Shown piece by piece: positions 40,192 to 63,296 of a stretch of 64,000 bases of DNA; position 1 is the stretch's first letter, and each line of letters opens with the position of its first letter. The stretch lies in assembly GCA_963729835.1 (NCBI GenBank), contig CAVSQF010000022.1:296150-360149 (forward strand), given 5' to 3'. Source of the DNA: an uncultured delta proteobacterium (GTDB lineage Bacteria; Desulfobacterota; Binatia; HRBIN30). The notes below the pieces were generated by a model. The model ran no database searches and was not told the origin of the DNA. It saw only the letters and a list, made by a program, of their open reading frames with translations. Made by a program: the position numbers and the translations under genes.

Positions 40192-40262
40192 GGTTCCCCT
40201 CCTTACGAAGGAGGGGTCAGGGGAGGTTTGGAATGCCGCGATGCTTAACCTCCCCCTCGCCT
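40192..40262. repeat. GGTTCCCCTCCTTAC(C/G)AAGGAGGGGTCAGGGGAGGTTTG repeat, copy 1
   Basis: Palindromic core CCCCTCCTT-ACGA-AGGAGGGG followed by TCAGGGGAGG. A partial inverted partner CCTCCCCCTCGCC lies 20 nt downstream. Second copy at 42961-43045. Confidence 0.65.
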
Positions 40263-42960: not shown

Positions 42961-43045
42961 GGGTTCCCCTCCTTACCAAGGAGGGGTCAGGGGAGGTTTG
43001 AGAAGGCCGCTCTACCTCCCCCTGACCCCCTCCTTCGAAAGCAGG
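42961..43045. repeat. GGTTCCCCTCCTTAC... repeat, copy 2, arranged as ~85-bp perfect-ish hairpin
   Basis: GGGTTCCCCTCCTTACCAAGGAGGGGTCAGGGGAGG ... CCTCCCCCTGACCCCCTCCTTCGAAAGCAGGGGGAAC: the two arms are reverse complements. Confidence 0.65.
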
Positions 43046-43292: not shown

Positions 43293-43414
43293 AGCAGTCC
43301 TCCTGCCGGCATATGGCCTATGGCGTATGGCTTATGGCCAGAGCGCACCGCACGCGCGTGCCCGTTGGTGGCTGGGTTCTGGCCATATGCCACCAGCTAT
43401 AAGCTATACGCCAT

Positions 43415-55061: not shown

Positions 55062-56413
55062 CTACAGTCTCCGCTTGTCGACAACGCGCACCGCCTTGCC
55101 CTCGGTGCGCGCGATCTGCCGTGGGCCCACGAGCGTGACGTTGCAGCTGATGCCGAGCGCGCTGCGGACCTCGTGGCTCAGCAGTCTCTCGTGCTGAACG
55201 AGGCGATCGCGGTTCGCGCACATCTCCGCCGGTGCCTCCACGACCACCTCCAGCTCGTCCATGTGCTCGGCGGCGCGATCCACGATGATCTGATAGTGCG
55301 GCGTCACCTCGCCGACGCGCAACAAAACGGCTTCGACCTGCGACGGGAACACATTGACACCGCGCACGATGATCATGTCGTCGGTGCGCCCGACCAGCCG
55401 GTCTATGCGAACGGTGGTGCGGCCGCAGGTGCATGGCTCGCGCATCAGCCGCGTCCGATCCCGGTCCGGTAGCGGATCAACGGCAAGGCTTCCTTGGTCA
55501 CGCACGTCAGCACGAGCTCGCCCACCTCGCCGTCGGGCAGCGGCTCCGTGGTCTGCGGATCGATGATCTCCGGAATGAAGTGATCCTCGAAAACGTGCAT
55601 GCCCTGCTGCTCGCGGCATTCAAAGGCCACCCCCGGACCGATCACCTCCGACAAGCCATACATATTGAGCGCCACGATGCCGAGGCGCGACTCGATTTCC
55701 TGCCGCATACGCTCGGACCAGGGCTCGGCGCCGAAGAGGCCGATCTTCAGCGGCAGCGACGCCGGGTCGATGCCCTCGTCGTCTGCGACCTCCGCGATCA
55801 GCAGCGCGTAGGACGGCGTGCAACACAGCACCGTGCTGCCGCAGTCGCGTATAAGCGTTAGCTGCCGCTTGGTGTTGCCGCCCGACACGGGGATCACCGT
55901 GGCGCCGATGCGCTCGGCGCCGTAGTGGAAACCGAGTCCACCTGTGAACAGGCCGTACCCGTAGGCGTTGTGAACGACGTCGTGCTCGGTCACGCCGGCC
56001 GCGGCGTAGGCGCGCGCGATCAGGTCGGCCCACAGTGCAATGTCGTTCTGCGTGTAGGCCACCACCGTCGGCTTACCCGTCGTCCCGCTGGAAGCGTGGA
56101 TGCGGATCACCTCTTTCATCGGCACCGCCAGCAGACCGAACGGATAGTTGTCGTGCAGGTCGCTCTTGGTCGTGAACGGCAACCGGACGAGATCGTCGAG
56201 CGACCGGATCCGTTCCGGGAGTCCTCGCCCACCGCGCAGCTTGTCGCGGTAGAACGGAACCGTCTTCGACAGCCGATCGATGCCGGCGCGCAGACGCTCC
56301 AGTTGCAGCCGTTCCAAGTCTCGCCGCGGAAGGCGCTCCACCTGGTCGCGAATGGCGGACCTGATTGCCGGCGTAGGCGTACGGCCCGGGCCGGCCGCGC
56401 TCGTCTCGTGCAT
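55062..56413 (-). CDS. paaK: phenylacetate-CoA ligase family (PaaK / F390 synthetase-like), one frameshift in a G-run at ~55453
   Basis: [15 protein letters not shown], then ...LIRYRTG | [15 protein letters not shown]...[17 protein letters not shown] continues in the -1 frame. Restoring one G in CCGGG(G) gives continuous IRYRTGDRTRL. Confidence 0.75.
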
Positions 56414-57025: not shown

Positions 57026-57134
57026 CCTCACCGTTTCCGCGCCAGGTGGATGCACTTATGGGCATGCTTCGCGTGGTGACTCACGGGGTCTTGGTACCAT
57101 CAGTGCCGCTGCTTGTGCAACGAGAATGCGGCTC
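57026..57134. repeat. cassette-boundary repeat, copy 1 (CCTCACCGTTTCCGCGCCAGGTGGA ... GGGGTCTTGGTACCATCAGTGCCGCTGCTTGTGCAACG)
   Basis: Conserved 25-bp left box and ~50-bp right box flank a variable middle. Copies at 57026, 59291, 61030. Confidence 0.8.
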
Positions 57135-57484
57135 AGTGGATAGTTCCTACAAACGGGGTAATTGCCATAAGGGCTACCTATCAGACGTTCCCGTCATCCC
57201 GGATCTGCCCCGGAAAATTCCGGACGCCCTACGGAAAGCGCGGTGAGTGCCAAACGGGGTTGGGTTTTGTTTGGCGCGAAACCGGCGCAGTCCGAAACGC
57301 CCGTCCGAGCCCGGCTGAGCGGCGTCCACCCGGATGAGGGCGGAGTAATGAAGAAGAAAAAGGAACAGAGAAAAAAGGACGGGAACAGCTCGAAGCGGTC
57401 TTTGGGGGCCGGCGCTTTACTCTCCCCTAAGTTACGAGGGCGAGATCTCAGATCCGAGCGCAAAGGGTACTTGTACCCTGGTCC

Positions 57485-59164
57485 TTAGGGCGCCGCCGTT
57501 GCTGGTTCAGGTAGTTGAGCGTTTTTCCGAGCATTGCAGCCGCGATGAGCTAGCTGCCCATTCTCAGGGACAGTTTTCCCGCCCTTACTGTAGGGGATGA
57601 TGTGATCGACGGTACTATCATCCAGCGAGTGAATTTCATTCTTGCAGAGCTGACACACGGGGGACTTGTCGTACAGATTCTTCCTGAACTCAAAATCGAA
57701 GAAACGTGGCTCGATCAAACTGCCATCGATGATGGGCTGGACGAGTCCGCGAAACTTGGTCCATCGGAGTTTTGTCTGCGCAGTGCTACCGGTTCGTTTC
57801 GAAATAGCATCCTGCATCTCCACGTCCGTTAACATCGTTAGCAGGAACAGCTCGCGAATCTGTTCCGCCGCCTGTTGGACTTTAGCCGCTTGCTGATTCA
57901 TTAACGCTGACGCCTGAATGTCAAAGGCTGTCACGGAGAATCTCATGTCCCAGCTGCCCTTGTTCGTGCGTGGATTGACTTCGTAAAGTCTGGCAGCCTT
58001 GTCGCCGAAAACTGCGTAGATGTTCTGCATAGTTTGCCTGAATAGCGTTGCATGGGCTTTTAGTTGTTGGTCGTCCCGTGGAGCGTATTGCTCCATATAT
58101 TCGTTGAGGAACCTCTTAAGGTTTCCAGTATAGCTGTTCAGCCTGTTTGCAAAGGCAAAGAAACGTAGAATCATTTCCCGCTCCTTGAATCGCCCTTCAG
58201 GTCCATCTCCTCCCTTGGACTTCCGCCAGTATGTGTCCTGTTCCAGTTCCGCAAGGAGGTCATTGAACGGTCCGCGATAGACGCAGTTCCGAAGTTCTTG
58301 CTCGTTCAGCGTCATCGAACCACGGTTCAGGCGCTCAAAGACCTCATACCGGAGCTCCGTGTTAACCCCGGCATCGATGACGATGCTCCGAATGGGGGTA
58401 TCCAAAATCTTTTCTTGTTGCTGTTTGGTGAGGTCCCGGAAGAACTTGTGATTAAGGCTGGCCATTCGGTGCAATTTCCGAAGGGGAAACTTGTTCAAGA
58501 CGAAGTTCACAAGGGTCGTGAGACGTTGCTGGCCATCGATCATCTCCAGCCGCCCATCGCTAACTTTTCCGAAATAGATTGGCGGGATCGGGATTTCGAG
58601 CAGCAATGATTCAATCAAACGTGAAGGCAGTTCGGGGCGCAAGTTCCAGACGTATTCTCTTTGAAACTTGGGTTGAAGATCCAGTTGCCCTCTGTCCAGC
58701 TTGTCCCTAAGAGCCGAGATCGTCCAGTCAGAACTCTGGCTCATTACAGGGCGATCATCGGGTTTTCCAATAGGTTGCTCTTCCTCTTGATCCGGTTCTA
58801 GCTGATCCTCTGAAAGTGTTGGCTCTTCAGCTTCGCCGTTGCCAGCACTCGCAGTGACAGATGCTGACGGCGAATTCTGCGAACTTGAGGCTTCGTGATG
58901 GGTCGGTGGGGTATTGGCTTGCTTGCTTGCGGTAGTTGGAACCAAAACGAAGCGAACCAGCTCGTCGATTCCCGCATCGTCCAGCATCGGGTCAGTTTCT
59001 AGGCCAAGACCTGCCATAACAACTTTAATATCGGAAAGAACATTGGCCCCACGCCTGGAGGCCCCAAACCACTTGAGGACTGCGCGAACCTTGTACCTCC
59101 TGGGAACTTCCCCGTTCTTCAATTGCTGTGCTACTTCGACAATTCGTTTTGGAGCCTCGTTCAT
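57485..59164 (-). CDS. DUF262 (ParB-like) + C-terminal HNH nuclease, GmrSD/SspE-like defence protein
   Basis: DGQQRLTT (DUF262), acidic low-complexity linker, C-terminal VDHIIPYSKGGKTVPENGQLAHRGCNARKN (HNH). Region is visibly lower in GC than flanks. Confidence 0.75.
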   Translation of the reverse strand: MNEAPKRIVEVAQQLKNGEVPRRYKVRAVLKWFGASRRGANVLSDIKVVMAGLGLETDPMLDDAGIDELVRFVLVPTTASKQANTPPTHHEASSSQNSPSASVTASAGNGEAEEPTLSEDQLEPDQEEEQPIGKPDDRPVMSQSSDWTISALRDKLDRGQLDLQPKFQREYVWNLRPELPSRLIESLLLEIPIPPIYFGKVSDGRLEMIDGQQRLTTLVNFVLNKFPLRKLHRMASLNHKFFRDLTKQQQEKILDTPIRSIVIDAGVNTELRYEVFERLNRGSMTLNEQELRNCVYRGPFNDLLAELEQDTYWRKSKGGDGPEGRFKEREMILRFFAFANRLNSYTGNLKRFLNEYMEQYAPRDDQQLKAHATLFRQTMQNIYAVFGDKAARLYEVNPRTNKGSWDMRFSVTAFDIQASALMNQQAAKVQQAAEQIRELFLLTMLTDVEMQDAISKRTGSTAQTKLRWTKFRGLVQPIIDGSLIEPRFFDFEFRKNLYDKSPVCQLCKNEIHSLDDSTVDHIIPYSKGGKTVPENGQLAHRGCNARKNAQLPEPATAAP

Positions 59165-59290
59165 GCATCACCTCCGTGCTTGGTCGCAGTGGCGTTTTGT
59201 GCGTGTTCTCGTTCTCGACCAGAGCATTCGGTCGCAGCTGGACAATCTTAGATCAACGGCCGGACAGTTGCCGCGTCCCCGTCCCGCGCC

Positions 59291-59408
59291 CCTCACCGTT
59301 TCCGCGCCAGGTGGAGCCACTCCCGCTGCGCGACGCATCCTTCATACAATAGACGCCCGGGGTCTTGGTACCATCAGTGCCGCTGCTTGTGCAACGTCAA
59401 CGCGACCC
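59291..59408. repeat. cassette-boundary repeat, copy 2
   Basis: Same left and right boxes as copy 1; longer variable middle. Confidence 0.8.
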
Positions 59409-59614
59409 ATGACTTCGTGACTTCGGGGACGATGGCACCTTCGGTACGTTTCGCCGGTGATTCGTATCAAGAGTGCCATCGTCCGTGGATCGCGCTGGAT
59501 CGCAACGTCCCTGGATCGCAACAGGGGTTTCTCTACGCTGACCAGTTGATCCAGGCTGCCGAGCGCGACGGAACGGGTGCTCCAACCGCACCTCCCAATA
59601 TGCTAGAAGCCATC

Positions 59615-59857
59615 ATGCCGACGGTATTCACAAAGGAGGGATTTCGCTTTCACTTCTACAGTAACGAGCGCAACGAGCCGCCGCACATTCATGTCACGGG
59701 CAAGGGCGGCGAGATGAAGATTTGGCTCCCCTCGCTGACCGTCGCGTTCTCCTTCGGCTTGTCGCCGCCCGCCCAGCGACGAGTCGTAGAGATCACCCAC
59801 GAGAATATGACACTACTCATGGAGCGTTGGAATGAGTTTAGCCGCAAGAAGAACTAG
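59615..59857 (+). CDS. DUF4160 family protein
   Basis: MPTVFTKEGFRFHFYSNERNEPPHIHV matches the DUF4160 core (..F.FYSNDHNPPHiHv). Confidence 0.7.
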   Translation: MPTVFTKEGFRFHFYSNERNEPPHIHVTGKGGEMKIWLPSLTVAFSFGLSPPAQRRVVEITHENMTLLMERWNEFSRKKN

Positions 59858-60074
59858 AAGTTACCCGGCGATTGTCGGCGCGAGCGTCAGCGCGGACCAA
59901 CTGACGGCGAAGCTGAGCGACGGCCGCGAGGTGTCGGTGCCGCTGGCGTGGTTTTCACGCTTGCTGAATGCCACTCCGGCACAACGAAGGAGGCTCGAGA
60001 TTTCGCCTGGAGGATACGGTATTCACTGGCCTGAGATTGACGAAGATATCAGTGTGAAGGCGTTCCTGGATTGA
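59832..60074 (+). CDS. DUF2442 family protein
   Basis: LSDGREVSVPLAWFSRLLNATPAQRRRLEISPGGYGIHWPEIDEDISVKAFL matches DUF2442. Overlaps the DUF4160 gene end (typical pair). Confidence 0.7.
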   Translation: MSLAARRTRSYPAIVGASVSADQLTAKLSDGREVSVPLAWFSRLLNATPAQRRRLEISPGGYGIHWPEIDEDISVKAFLD

Positions 60075-60127: not shown

Positions 60128-60562
60128 CTACGGCGCGACCACGGTGAAGCCACCGAACGTGGCAAAATCGCGCGCGTTCGTAGTCAGCACGGAGGAGATG
60201 CCTGCGCTGCGGAACGTGGTGGCCAGCATCGTGTCGAGCACGCGCTTTCGCCCGAGCTGGTGCGCGCGCATCCAGTCGAGAAACAGCCGCATCGCCTCGG
60301 CGTCCGGGGTAACCTGCTCGATCTCGGGCGCGTTCCACCAACTCTCCGCGCGATCCAATGCCTCGCCCATTGGCAGCGGCTGGGAAAACCGCTTTGCATC
60401 GGTGACCACATGGACAAACTCCGCGAGCACCTGCGGCGTGAGCGCGAAGGTGTCTCCGGCCTGGCGCAACGCCTTCAGCTTAGCGCGAGCTGCAGAATGT
60501 TCGGCGTGCTCCGCCACTTCCGCAGCCACGAGAAAGCTCGTGTCAAAACCGTGCGTCATCGA
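60128..60562 (-). CDS. vapC: PIN-domain toxin VapC
   Basis: MTHGFDTSFLVAAE (first Asp), later D and TTNARDF motif; ~144 aa. Confidence 0.8.
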   Translation of the reverse strand, partial: SMTHGFDTSFLVAAEVAEHAEHSAARAKLKALRQAGDTFALTPQVLAEFVHVVTDAKRFSQPLPMGEALDRAESWWNAPEIEQVTPDAEAMRLFLDWMRAHQLGRKRVLDTMLATTFRSAGISSVLTTNARDFATFGGFTVVAP

Positions 60563-60761
60563 GCATCTCCGCGAGCAGATCGTCCTCCGCACTCAGCGGC
60601 CGGAGAACTTCACCCAGCCGGAGCGGCGGAAGGTCCAGCGGGCTGCGCCTCACGCCGCCGGCTTGTCGCCGCCGCGCCGAGTGCACCAGGCGCTCGAGCT
60701 CCGAAAGCTCCTTCGGGCTCAATAACGGAATCGCGGCCTCGATCTCGGCCAGTGTACTCAT
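60543..60761 (-). CDS. VapB-like antitoxin (small, overlaps vapC start)
   Basis: MSTLAEIEAAIPLLSPKELSELERLVHSARRRQ...; 20-nt overlap with vapC. Confidence 0.55.
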   Translation of the reverse strand: MSTLAEIEAAIPLLSPKELSELERLVHSARRRQAGGVRRSPLDLPPLRLGEVLRPLSAEDDLLAEMLDDARF

Positions 60762-61029
60762 GGCGCAGAACGTAGCACGCGCGCGCCGCGGTCGACAAGG
60801 CAGAACAGCTGAGCTGACAGAAACGTAGGGGCGAGTGGGACGACTTGAGAGCGAGGTGCTTGTCGGAGGGCGGACAGTTGACGCTTCATCGCCCCTCAGA
60901 GCAAATCGGGCGCCCAATGCATGACGGGCAGCCCTCTATAGACATTGCAGCGACCAACCCTGTCCTGAGCCCCGTCGAAGGAGGGAGCGGACCCGCCGCA
61001 CGGACGCCGGGCGCAGCCCTCACCGTTTC

Positions 61030-61114
61030 CGCGCCGGTTGGATGTATGACTCACGGGGTCTTGGTACCATCACTGCGGCTGCTTGTGCAACGACAATGCA
61101 ACCCAGGCGAGGAC
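61030..61114. repeat. cassette-boundary repeat, copy 3
   Basis: Same boxes; shortest middle (TGTATGACTCAC). Confidence 0.8.
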
Positions 61115-61751: not shown

Positions 61752-62732
61752 GTGGTGATTCCCGTGCGCACATTATCCATCCTCATGATTGCGCTGATCC
61801 TGGCGGTACGTTCGTCAGCCGAGCCAACGACGGCAACACCGACGCCGATTCCGACTTTCAGCGAATGCAACCCATCAGCAGACGACTGCCCGGTTGGTAG
61901 TCAGTGCCTGTGCTGTTGCGGCACGTGGATATGCATGCCGCCCTATCTACCCTGCTGCGATATTGCCTGTTTGTCGTCAATACCGACGCCGACCGCGACA
62001 CCGACACCAACTCCTAGTGCATGTGATCCGCTCATAAACAACTGCCCTCTCGGAACTACCTGCGGCTGCTGTTGCGGGGCATGGGAATGTCTGCACGGTA
62101 CCGAAATCTGCTGTGAGATCGCTTGCATGTTCCCGACACCGGTTTCCACGGCGACACCGACACCAACCGAGCCCTGCAGTGGATCGCCTTGTGGTGGCAC
62201 CTGCGTAATCTGTCCGCCGTGTACACCGGGAACGATCTGTCCGTTGGCTCCATGCGAACTTGGGCACTGCGAGTTGAGCGCCGCTGGGAGTTGTGCTTGT
62301 GCCCCCGGTCTAGCAGCAACACCCACCGCGACACCCACGCTACTGCCTGGGACCTGTATCGGCGATTGTAACGGCGATGGGGCGGTGACCATCAACGAGA
62401 TCATCCTCATGCTGAACATCACGCTGGGCAACGTGTCGAGCGCTGCGTGCCCCGCTGTCCATGGGTGGTGTCCCGAGGGGTGCACCGTCAACGACCTTAT
62501 AGCGGCGGTGAACAACGCGCTGTACGGTTGCCTGGTCGGACCACCACCGACACCAACGCCCCAGTGCAGCGAGGTGCCATGCGGAGGCTCCTGTACGATA
62601 GCGCCGCCGTGCACTCCCGGTCCCAATACCGCCTGCCCAAATTCCGTTATGCTTGGCGTGTGCGGGCTGAATCCTTTGAGTGGCTGCCAATGTGAACCTG
62701 TCGAACCGGTGACGATGAGTTCAAGTACTTAG
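61752..62732 (+). CDS. secreted modular Cys-rich protein with PT linkers and dockerin-like double repeat
   Basis: Signal peptide; modules CNPSADDCPVGSQCLCCCGTWIC / CDPLINNCPLGTTCGCCCGAWEC; ATPTPT linkers; CIGDCNGDGAVTINEIILMLNITLG...[14 protein letters not shown]. Confidence 0.6.
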   Translation: MVIPVRTLSILMIALILAVRSSAEPTTATPTPIPTFSECNPSADDCPVGSQCLCCCGTWICMPPYLPCCDIACLSSIPTPTATPTPTPSACDPLINNCPLGTTCGCCCGAWECLHGTEICCEIACMFPTPVSTATPTPTEPCSGSPCGGTCVICPPCTPGTICPLAPCELGHCELSAAGSCACAPGLAATPTATPTLLPGTCIGDCNGDGAVTINEIILMLNITLGNVSSAACPAVHGWCPEGCTVNDLIAAVNNALYGCLVGPPPTPTPQCSEVPCGGSCTIAPPCTPGPNTACPNSVMLGVCGLNPLSGCQCEPVEPVTMSSST

Positions 62733-62900: not shown

Positions 62901-63296
62901 TCAGCCAGGGTCGGGTTGTGGGTCGCTCCAACTGTAAGAGTTGTACAAGTCGTGAATGCTCCCGTCAGTCGTCTTCTTCTCCCACATCAGCCCCGTCTGC
63001 CTGTCCGTGATCGTTCCGTTGCCGTTATCGACGAATCGTGGCGGACAGAGCGCCGCCACATTAGCCGCCACGACACTGTCCGCCGGAATCGACGGGTCCA
63101 GCGCCCGGAAACTCGGCGGCACGGGGGTGAGCCCAAGCAACGTGCGCGCTACGTAGACGACATCCGTGGCGACATCAGGCGGCGGTCCCGAGTCGTCCAC
63201 ATCGAGCGGACACGTGGACCCGGCACCGGCACTGCGAACACCGGTCAACAAGATCAAGAACGCAGCGCCAGTAAGAACTTTGAAAAACACTTTCAT
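62901..63296 (-). CDS. secreted protein with dockerin-like motif and DUF1566-like C-terminus
   Basis: Signal peptide MKVFFKVLTGAAFLILLTGVRSAGA; DVATDVVYVARTLLGL; FVDNGNGTITDRQTGLMWEKK resembles the DUF1566/Lcl signature. Confidence 0.55.
   Translation of the reverse strand: MKVFFKVLTGAAFLILLTGVRSAGAGSTCPLDVDDSGPPPDVATDVVYVARTLLGLTPVPPSFRALDPSIPADSVVAANVAALCPPRFVDNGNGTITDRQTGLMWEKKTTDGSIHDLYNSYSWSDPQPDPG

Follow-up and report, generated by a model that had tools for sequence, protein, structure and literature searches.

The DNA analysed here is a 64-kb stretch (64 000 nucleotides; hereafter the window) from contig CAVSQF010000022.1 of an uncultured delta proteobacterium, which carries a gene for a predicted nuclease at positions 57485-59164 of its minus strand. 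The open reading frame (ORF) begins with ATG, runs uninterrupted for 559 amino acids (aa) and is preceded by a ribosome-binding site, GGAGGTG (59169-59175), 4-5 nt 5' of the start codon. The sequence from 57282 to 59297 was reproduced exactly by an independent short-read contig from another run. On one side the gene is neighboured by iorB and paaK, and on the other by a DUF4160/DUF2442 pair, a PIN toxin-antitoxin pair and a ribbon-helix-helix protein; ordinary metabolic genes lie farther out (~40-63 kb scanned). Direct repeats bracket the gene at 57027-57136 and 59292-59410, and a third copy is found 1.7 kb further, at 61019-61106; the chance expectation for such repeats was 0 in 100 shuffles.

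Pfam identified two families in the protein: PF03235 (GmrSD_N/DUF262; E = 2e-24) over aa 157-295 and PF01844 (HNH; E = 6e-12) over aa 504-549, with PF14279 and PF13395 as further matching HNH models. A preliminary description of this DNA had recognized the motifs DGQQRLTT and DHIIPYSKGG...H..CN and had proposed a search for DUF262, DUF1524 and HNH domains; both motifs are present and the first and last of these domains were recovered, but DUF1524 (PF07510) gave no match at E values up to 0.1. On the ORF together with Pfam, PADLOC, homologue and substitution-rate evidence, the product is described as a single-chain DUF262-ParBDB-HNH protein.

The N-terminal domain (aa 1-77; 58934-59164, this and all following segments on the minus strand) has a predicted winged-helix-like fold, nearest to DNA-binding winged helices, and is a candidate sensor or DNA-binding module; its first ~70 aa match positions 1-69 of the NCBIfam model NF053863 (DS-11) with an E value of 2.6e-7. 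It is followed by a low-complexity, disordered linker (aa 78-134; 58763-58933) with a predicted local distance difference test (pLDDT) score below 50, which differs in length and sequence among homologues. The ParB-like DUF262 NTPase domain (aa ~135-300; 58265-58762) was assigned from Pfam, invariant motifs and fold matches (BrxU, ParB N-domains and sulfiredoxin). It contains QREYVW (168-173), DGQQR (210-214) and FERLNRG (276-282), all invariant in an alignment of 41 homologues; the second lies within IDGQQRLTT (209-217), which is likewise invariant. The helical middle domain (aa ~301-485; 57710-58264) was taken from the NsnA profile and the AlphaFold2 model to be equivalent to NsnA-C, the 'ParBDB' domain defined by Li et al. 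(PMC12065111). The C-terminal HNH (beta-beta-alpha-Me) nuclease domain (aa ~490-552; 57509-57697) was delimited using PF01844 and an alignment to PDB entry 4h9d, which places D520-H521, N535 and N544 at catalytic positions and gives C504, C507, H540 and C543 as putative zinc ligands. Its motif, DHIIPYSKGGKTVPENGQLAHRGCNARKN (aa 520-548, with DHIIPYSKGG...HRGCN at aa 520-544), is invariant in the 41 homologues. The beta-beta-alpha-Me fold, the D/H-N-N/H catalytic set and the zinc-binding Cys/His pair of pairs that characterize PF01844 are thus all present. An AlphaFold2 model calculated with 41 sequences shows an N-terminal domain, a disordered linker, a ParB-like fold, an all-helical domain (aa ~300-485, pLDDT 85-95) and a beta-beta-alpha HNH domain.

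Among the PADLOC profiles, the best match was NsnA (PDLC03877; E = 1e-82, 276 bits), covering aa 114-479 and profile positions 28-383 of 385, followed by PD-T4-2_A (E = 3e-49, 166 bits). SspE models reached E values of 5e-4 to 7e-4 (~16 bits over ~30 residues, the best stretches being aa 193-223 and 193-272), and GmrSD and BrxU models were absent from the PADLOC matches. PHROG 2598, to which no function is assigned, spans the same core as the NsnA profile (E = 2e-72). A Foldseek search with the model returned BrxU, a member of the GmrSD family (7p9k; E = 3.7e-5), as the best hit, then ParB N-domains and the Gme HNH nickase; the match to SspE (6jiv) had an E value of 0.58. By sequence, no relative was found in the PDB beyond the HNH domain and a 48-aa stretch of DUF262.

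Clustered at 90% identity, the homologues of the protein number more than 3,400; the best 120 of these are 64-91% identical, of equal length and of the same Pfam architecture, and come mostly from soil metagenomes. When the representatives at 50% identity were searched exhaustively, 10,489 matches were obtained at E <= 1e-3 and 710 at E <= 1e-30. Using domain-wise phmmer, DUF262 and HNH were both present in 101 of the best 150 of these representatives; in the 101, the extension N-terminal to DUF262 was shorter than 40 aa in 46, 40-119 aa in 27, 120-249 aa in 20 and at least 250 aa in eight. The N-terminal domain of the 559-aa protein was found in only one full-length representative. Judged from these sequences, the DUF262-ParBDB-HNH core is widespread and its N-terminal modules are polymorphic, as described for NsnA. 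Plasmid and phage collections yielded partial relatives only (22-36% identical, none full length), and no published experimental test of this architecture was found in the literature. Of the homologues with retrieved DNA, L089 is the closest (85% identical in protein sequence); relative to it, the ratio of nonsynonymous to synonymous substitution rates (dN/dS) is ~0.05. The core, with dN of 0.06 and dS above 1.5, is under strong purifying selection; the N-terminal domain changes faster and the linker has the highest dN of all segments.

The base composition of the gene sets it apart from its surroundings. Its GC content is 51.85%, compared with a mean of 62.9% (s.d. 2.2, minimum 58.2%) for 1,171 other windows of the gene's length (1,680 nt) taken across the whole stretch (z = -5.15), and none of the 1,171 is as low; GC at third codon positions is 0.58, against 0.77-0.86 in adjoining host genes. 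The GC scan suggested in the preliminary description therefore bears out the AT-richness of the gene, with the background corrected from ~65% to ~63%. The same description had called the flanks AT-rich, which holds mildly for the 3' side (57137-57484, 348 nt, non-coding, within the inserted segment, 58% GC) but not for the 5' side, where the sequence is a repeat derived from the host. In the 3' flank neither a significant fold nor homology to the homologue loci was found, nucleotide similarity to other copies of the gene ending at the ends of the coding sequence (CDS). A small lysine-rich ORF on the plus strand (57243-57488; MKKKKEQRKKDG..., 46 aa from its ATG) runs towards the nuclease gene, the stop codon of which it overlaps, and is probably spurious. 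The nuclease gene is absent at the syntenic locus in seven distinct related loci (ten contigs), and its homologues have a GC content of 50-55% irrespective of that of the host (53-64%). Horizontal acquisition, as first proposed, is well supported by the foreign GC content, the absence from relatives' loci and homologues that hold ~52% GC in any host; a donor genome of ~52% GC would be the source.

The sequence into which the gene has been inserted was identified by comparison with these related loci (L003, L083/84/85/86/87/88, L099, L100, L101 and L102), in which iorA-iorB-paaK is intact with nothing inserted. The gene order there is thioesterase/iorA/iorB/paaK, with iorA directly upstream of iorB in all. 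In the window iorB is intact, whereas iorA (encoding the indolepyruvate oxidoreductase alpha subunit) and the thioesterase gene are absent from the whole 64 kb. At 90% identity the iorB product clusters with a protein annotated as 'Candidatus Binatia bacterium', and the source is a Binatia-like soil bacterium. The phenylacetate-CoA ligase gene paaK (55062-56413, minus strand) is split into two frames near 55463, where 1 nt has been lost from a C run (CC in place of the CCC of L003); this could reflect a pseudogene or a homopolymer assembly error. With iorA gone and paaK carrying this deletion, the operon looks to be decaying.

Each repeat consists of two blocks joined across the iorA deletion: block B, which is the intergenic region upstream of iorA, and block A, which is the last seven codons of iorA and its stop codon (...IHLARKR followed by the stop). 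All three copies lie on the minus strand. S1 (57027-57138; block B 57085-57136, block A 57027-57050) abuts the start codon of iorB (57021). S2 (59258-59412; block B 59359-59410, block A 59292-59315) lies 5' of the nuclease gene, and its block A, within which the independent short-read contig breaks, is followed by ~34 nt of degenerate intergenic and iorB 5' sequence (59258-59291). S3 (60882-61107; block B 61055-61106, block A 61019-61042) lies 5' of the PIN toxin-antitoxin pair and keeps the 115-nt iorA-iorB spacer, as in L083, and the first iorB codons. The deletion junctions differ slightly among the three. The differing ends on the A side had raised the idea of purely illegitimate joins, which is weakened by pairwise alignment: S2 and S3 each extend ~25-30 nt into degenerate iorB 5' sequence. 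S1 and S2 share an identical stretch of 38 nt, and such long identical stretches make RecA-mediated exchange possible. A strict 29-base block B pattern had no match in GTDB representative genomes; a looser pattern matched one metagenome contig (L002), in which the same scar stands beside iorB and is followed by a different toxin-antitoxin cargo.

The unit between S2 and S3 has a GC content of 62%, near that of the host, and contains the DUF4160/DUF2442 pair (59615-60074, plus strand) and the PIN toxin gene with a small upstream partner ORF (60128-60770, minus strand). Outside block B of S2 and upstream of the DUF4160 gene, an 81-nt near-perfect hairpin was observed (59415-59495, plus strand; dG -47.1 kcal/mol, z -6.5); it is single-copy in the window, and its segment 59449-59489 is 83% identical to intergenic positions 647-687 of L102.

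Signals of a dedicated element were sought in and around the repeats. Folding of the repeats on both strands did not differ from that of shuffled sequences (z of -0.25 to +1.40), so the candidate reading of the repeats as structured RNA or attC-like hairpins was ruled out; the imperfect palindrome with R''/R' core sites that defines an integron attC is not seen in them. Integrons are further characterized by a linked IntI integrase and attI and by promoterless cassettes that share one orientation. Rfam gave no matches at gathering thresholds over the whole window and only chance-level ones in an E-value scan of 56.9-61.8 kb (SECIS_3, E = 0.046; mir-126, E = 1.1). The scan for tRNA and tmRNA genes found none, and therefore no tRNA-type attachment site is indicated. 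No sigma-70 promoter was found in 56.9-61.8 kb. Inspection by eye showed a sigma-54-like TGGTAC-N5-GTGC within block B, which was set aside as it is oriented away from iorA. The repeats are duplicated host sequence and not sites of a mobile-element type. The preliminary description had placed the gene between two cassette-boundary repeats: the repeats are real and number three, but they are copies of the host iorA region and lack an attC-like hairpin.

Taken together, the reading that we consider somewhat better than evenly probable is that the gene specifies a defence enzyme against foreign DNA, acting autonomously as a single polypeptide, and was acquired into a variable spot upstream of iorB. 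In GmrSD, BrxU and SspE, a DUF262 NTPase and a helical domain recognize a DNA feature, and nucleotide turnover licenses a fused His-Me nuclease (PMC10952713; PMC12065111). By analogy, DNA would be sensed jointly by the ParB-like DUF262 NTPase and by ParBDB, its helical partner in DNA binding, the winged-helix-like domain on its flexible linker would probably add specificity, and nucleoside triphosphate (NTP) binding or hydrolysis would license the C-terminal HNH domain for nicking or cutting of the DNA so recognized. Such a design would be that of GmrSD/BrxU type IV restriction, with a sensor core of NsnA type and a canonical PF01844 HNH replacing DUF1524. Because no modification gene or cognate methyltransferase accompanies the nuclease, the most likely target is modified or other non-self DNA, in a modification-dependent (type IV-like) restriction. 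The spot itself, directly upstream of iorB, holds several small defence and toxin-antitoxin cassettes stacked together, with duplicated remnants of the iorA region between them.

Several points weigh against this interpretation. NTP gating, the DNA target and modification dependence are inferred from characterized relatives, and so is the anti-phage role: substrate, NTP dependence and phage protection all enter by analogy. The full-length AlphaFold2 model is only moderately confident (pLDDT 77, predicted template-modelling score 0.60), and the best PADLOC match is a sensor, NsnA, itself of unexplained mechanism. In sequence, the N-terminal domain is related only to the N-terminus of DS-11 (a CBS-HEPN system of abortive type), which could point to a protein or ligand trigger in place of DNA modification. 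Finally, functional dependence on neighbours is possible, since four of the eight genomic contexts described next place the gene beside a type IIG restriction-modification (RM) enzyme and an HKD-SNF2 helicase.

The contexts comprised seven homologue loci (67-85% identical) and the window itself. At four of the seven (L089, L090/91, L092 and L093/94), an MmeI-like type IIG RM gene, matching PDLC03628/03620, and an HKD+Snf2 helicase gene adjoin the nuclease gene, sometimes with a DprA-like gene. At the other three (P0049, L096/97 and L098) the nuclease gene stands alone among housekeeping or toxin-antitoxin genes, as it does here, so that it is solitary in four of the eight. The NsnB/NsnC pair, a HEPN partner and ssp/dnd genes were found in none of the eight. 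These associations, and the Menshen sensor as best profile hit, are what would be expected if the protein were an orphaned part of a multi-gene system, whether as a sensor-effector fusion of Menshen-like type or as an accessory to the type IIG RM and HKD-SNF2 set, and were inert or only partly functional alone. We regard this as unlikely, although it survives better than the other alternatives: the solitary copies do not fit it, the orientation to the RM genes is variable (divergent in L093), the RM gene of L092 is fragmented while the nuclease gene beside it is intact, the effector domain is carried by the nuclease protein itself, and the present ORF is intact with all motifs and a low dN/dS. 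As the RM and HKD-SNF2 genes occur in four contexts only and in both orientations, they are neighbours within an island without being an obligate part of one operon, and we conclude that the nuclease gene is an autonomous single-gene unit which tends to sit in defence islands. The set recurring at L089, L090, L092 and L093, namely the HKD(PLD)+SNF2 helicase, the MmeI-like type IIG RM enzyme, the DprA-like protein (a weak PsyrA match) and proteins of 219 and 196 aa without a family match, may itself constitute a defence module.

A second alternative, slightly less likely again, takes the protein to be an abortive-infection toxin: its N-terminal domain would respond to a phage protein or to a small molecule, and its HNH domain would then degrade host and phage DNA alike, whether modified or not. 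DS-11 is a validated one-protein CBS-HEPN system that is thought to be ligand-regulated (PMC13092281); it shares the N-terminal module of ~70 aa with the present protein, but its remainder is CBS plus an HEPN RNase, against DUF262 plus an HNH DNase here. The location of the gene among toxin-antitoxin cassettes and the polymorphic N-terminal domains across the family would also suit such a toxin. Against it, the characterized DUF262-nuclease fusions all act on DNA features (PMC10952713), the N-terminal fold is closest to DNA-binding proteins and there is no adjacent immunity gene.

Strict membership of GmrSD or SspE, the architecture named in the preliminary description, is improbable to a marginally greater degree. 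It would make the protein either a type IV enzyme for glucosyl-hydroxymethylcytosine (hmC) DNA or a phosphorothioate-sensing nickase working with SspABCD. GmrSD performs modification-dependent, NTP-stimulated cleavage of DNA containing glucosylated hmC, hmC or 5-methylcytosine. Pfam's DUF262 model is named GmrSD_N, BrxU is the best structural match with SspE also matched, and the DHIIP motif resembles DHIYP of GmrD (PMC10952713). BrxU and GmrSD (7p9k; Eco94GmrSD) share with the present protein a single chain with an N-terminal ParB-like DUF262 containing DGQQR, a helical middle and a C-terminal His-Me finger nuclease, and an occurrence alone or in defence islands beside RM or BREX-type systems. 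However, of the features that define GmrSD, the DUF262 domain with (I/V)DGQQR is present and DUF1524 is absent: the nuclease here is a PF01844 HNH with a CCHC zinc site, from the same superfamily but another family. The protein also has an additional N-terminal domain and disordered linker, and it has no significant sequence match to GmrSD/BrxU models; its sequence relatives in the PDB are confined to the short regions given above. For SspE and DndI (PDB entries 6jiv and 9jfl), the nuclease is DUF1524 and the profile similarity is marginal, at ~16 bits compared with 276 for NsnA; these enzymes act together with the modification genes sspABCD or dndBCDE, none of which occurs in the scanned region (~40-63 kb), a Pfam scan of the cassette array and of the ORFs at ~40-57 kb having found no ssp/dnd genes.

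The nearest relative by sequence profile is instead NsnA, the Menshen sensor (PMC12065111), the profile of which covers ParB-DUF262 and ParBDB; optional, polymorphic N-terminal sensor domains occur in both families. Menshen requires NsnB (an ABC ATPase with DUF3696) and NsnC (an inactive PIN plus nuclease), both missing here and in the seven homologue contexts, whereas in the 559-aa protein the HNH effector is fused in cis. Protein A of PD-T4-2, the second-best profile, likewise has DUF262 and lacks DUF1524. In PD-T4-2 it is paired with the HEPN product of a second gene (PMC10952713); the nuclease gene here has no HEPN neighbour, and PD-T4-2 protein A has no HNH. On sequence grounds the nuclease thus appears to be GmrSD/BrxU-like in its working but without DUF1524, and NsnA-like in its core but without Menshen partners and with an effector of its own. 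It is a variant of an already known enzyme design, and its domain logic is expected.

Candidate routes for the duplication of the scar are a Campbell-type or one-sided homologous recombination between strains with different cargo, an exchange of circles made up of scar and cassette, or an undescribed site-specific process; any of them may have operated. In a broader reading that we hold to be very unlikely, the three iorA-derived repeats mark an undescribed way of building cassette arrays, and the nuclease is one such cassette and a 'single-chain Menshen'. Each captured gene set would then arrive with, or generate, a fresh host segment of ~110-230 nt with roughly fixed ends, running from the upstream region of iorA over the deletion scar to the first iorB codons; defence and toxin-antitoxin cassettes would be stacked and shuffled between strains without an integron integrase, and the swappable N-terminal domain in common with DS-11 would set what the enzyme senses. 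Least probable of all is that the repeats are recombination sites of a dedicated capture system (integron-like or otherwise site-specific) and the gene a strict mobile cassette: three direct repeats do delimit units with defence and toxin-antitoxin cargo, the ends of S2 and S3 fall at similar positions on either side, the fourth scar copy, in L002, abuts another toxin-antitoxin cargo and RecA-type exchange could also proceed over the two identical stretches of 38 nt, but the repeats consist of host sequence (the region upstream of iorA, the 3' end of iorA, the intergenic spacer and the 5' end of iorB), they give no secondary-structure signal, R'/R'' boxes were not recognized by eye, the cassettes between them are in mixed orientation, no integrase was found among the ORFs scanned (40-64 kb) and nucleotide homology to other nuclease copies does not reach past the CDS.

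Elsewhere in the window, a 326-aa cysteine-rich and apparently secreted protein is encoded at 61752-62732 (plus strand), with repeated CxxC-rich modules between which TPTPTATP linkers lie, a dockerin-like DCNGDG segment and no Pfam match; a small signal-peptide protein beside it (62901-63296, minus strand) also had no match. A 39-nt hairpin-containing element, GGTTCCCCTCCTTACGAAGGAGGGGTCAGGGGAGGTTTG, occurs at 40192-40230 and 42962-43000 in copies that are 97% identical and flank a gene of the metallo-beta-lactamase fold; it looks REP-like (repetitive extragenic palindrome). A 40-nt inverted repeat of degenerate GGC(A/C/G)TAT-type heptamers (GGCATATGGCCTATGGCGTATGGCTTATGGCC) lies at 43308-43412.

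The characterized fusions of DUF262 with a nuclease (GmrSD, BrxU, SspE and DndI) are modification-reading restriction enzymes, and all of those studied use DUF1524. In the present family, an NsnA-type sensor core is joined directly to a classical HNH nuclease, and the N-terminal domains are exchangeable. If the protein is active alone, it would offer a compact model for Menshen-type coupling of sensor and effector and for recognition by the N-terminal module shared with DS-11. The locus shows clearly how, in nature, defence and toxin-antitoxin genes stack up in a metabolic operon that is decaying, with duplicated host sequence and not mobile-element sites as their boundaries; the abundance of the family, its swappable N-terminal domains and this scar-bounded stacking are what make it noteworthy.

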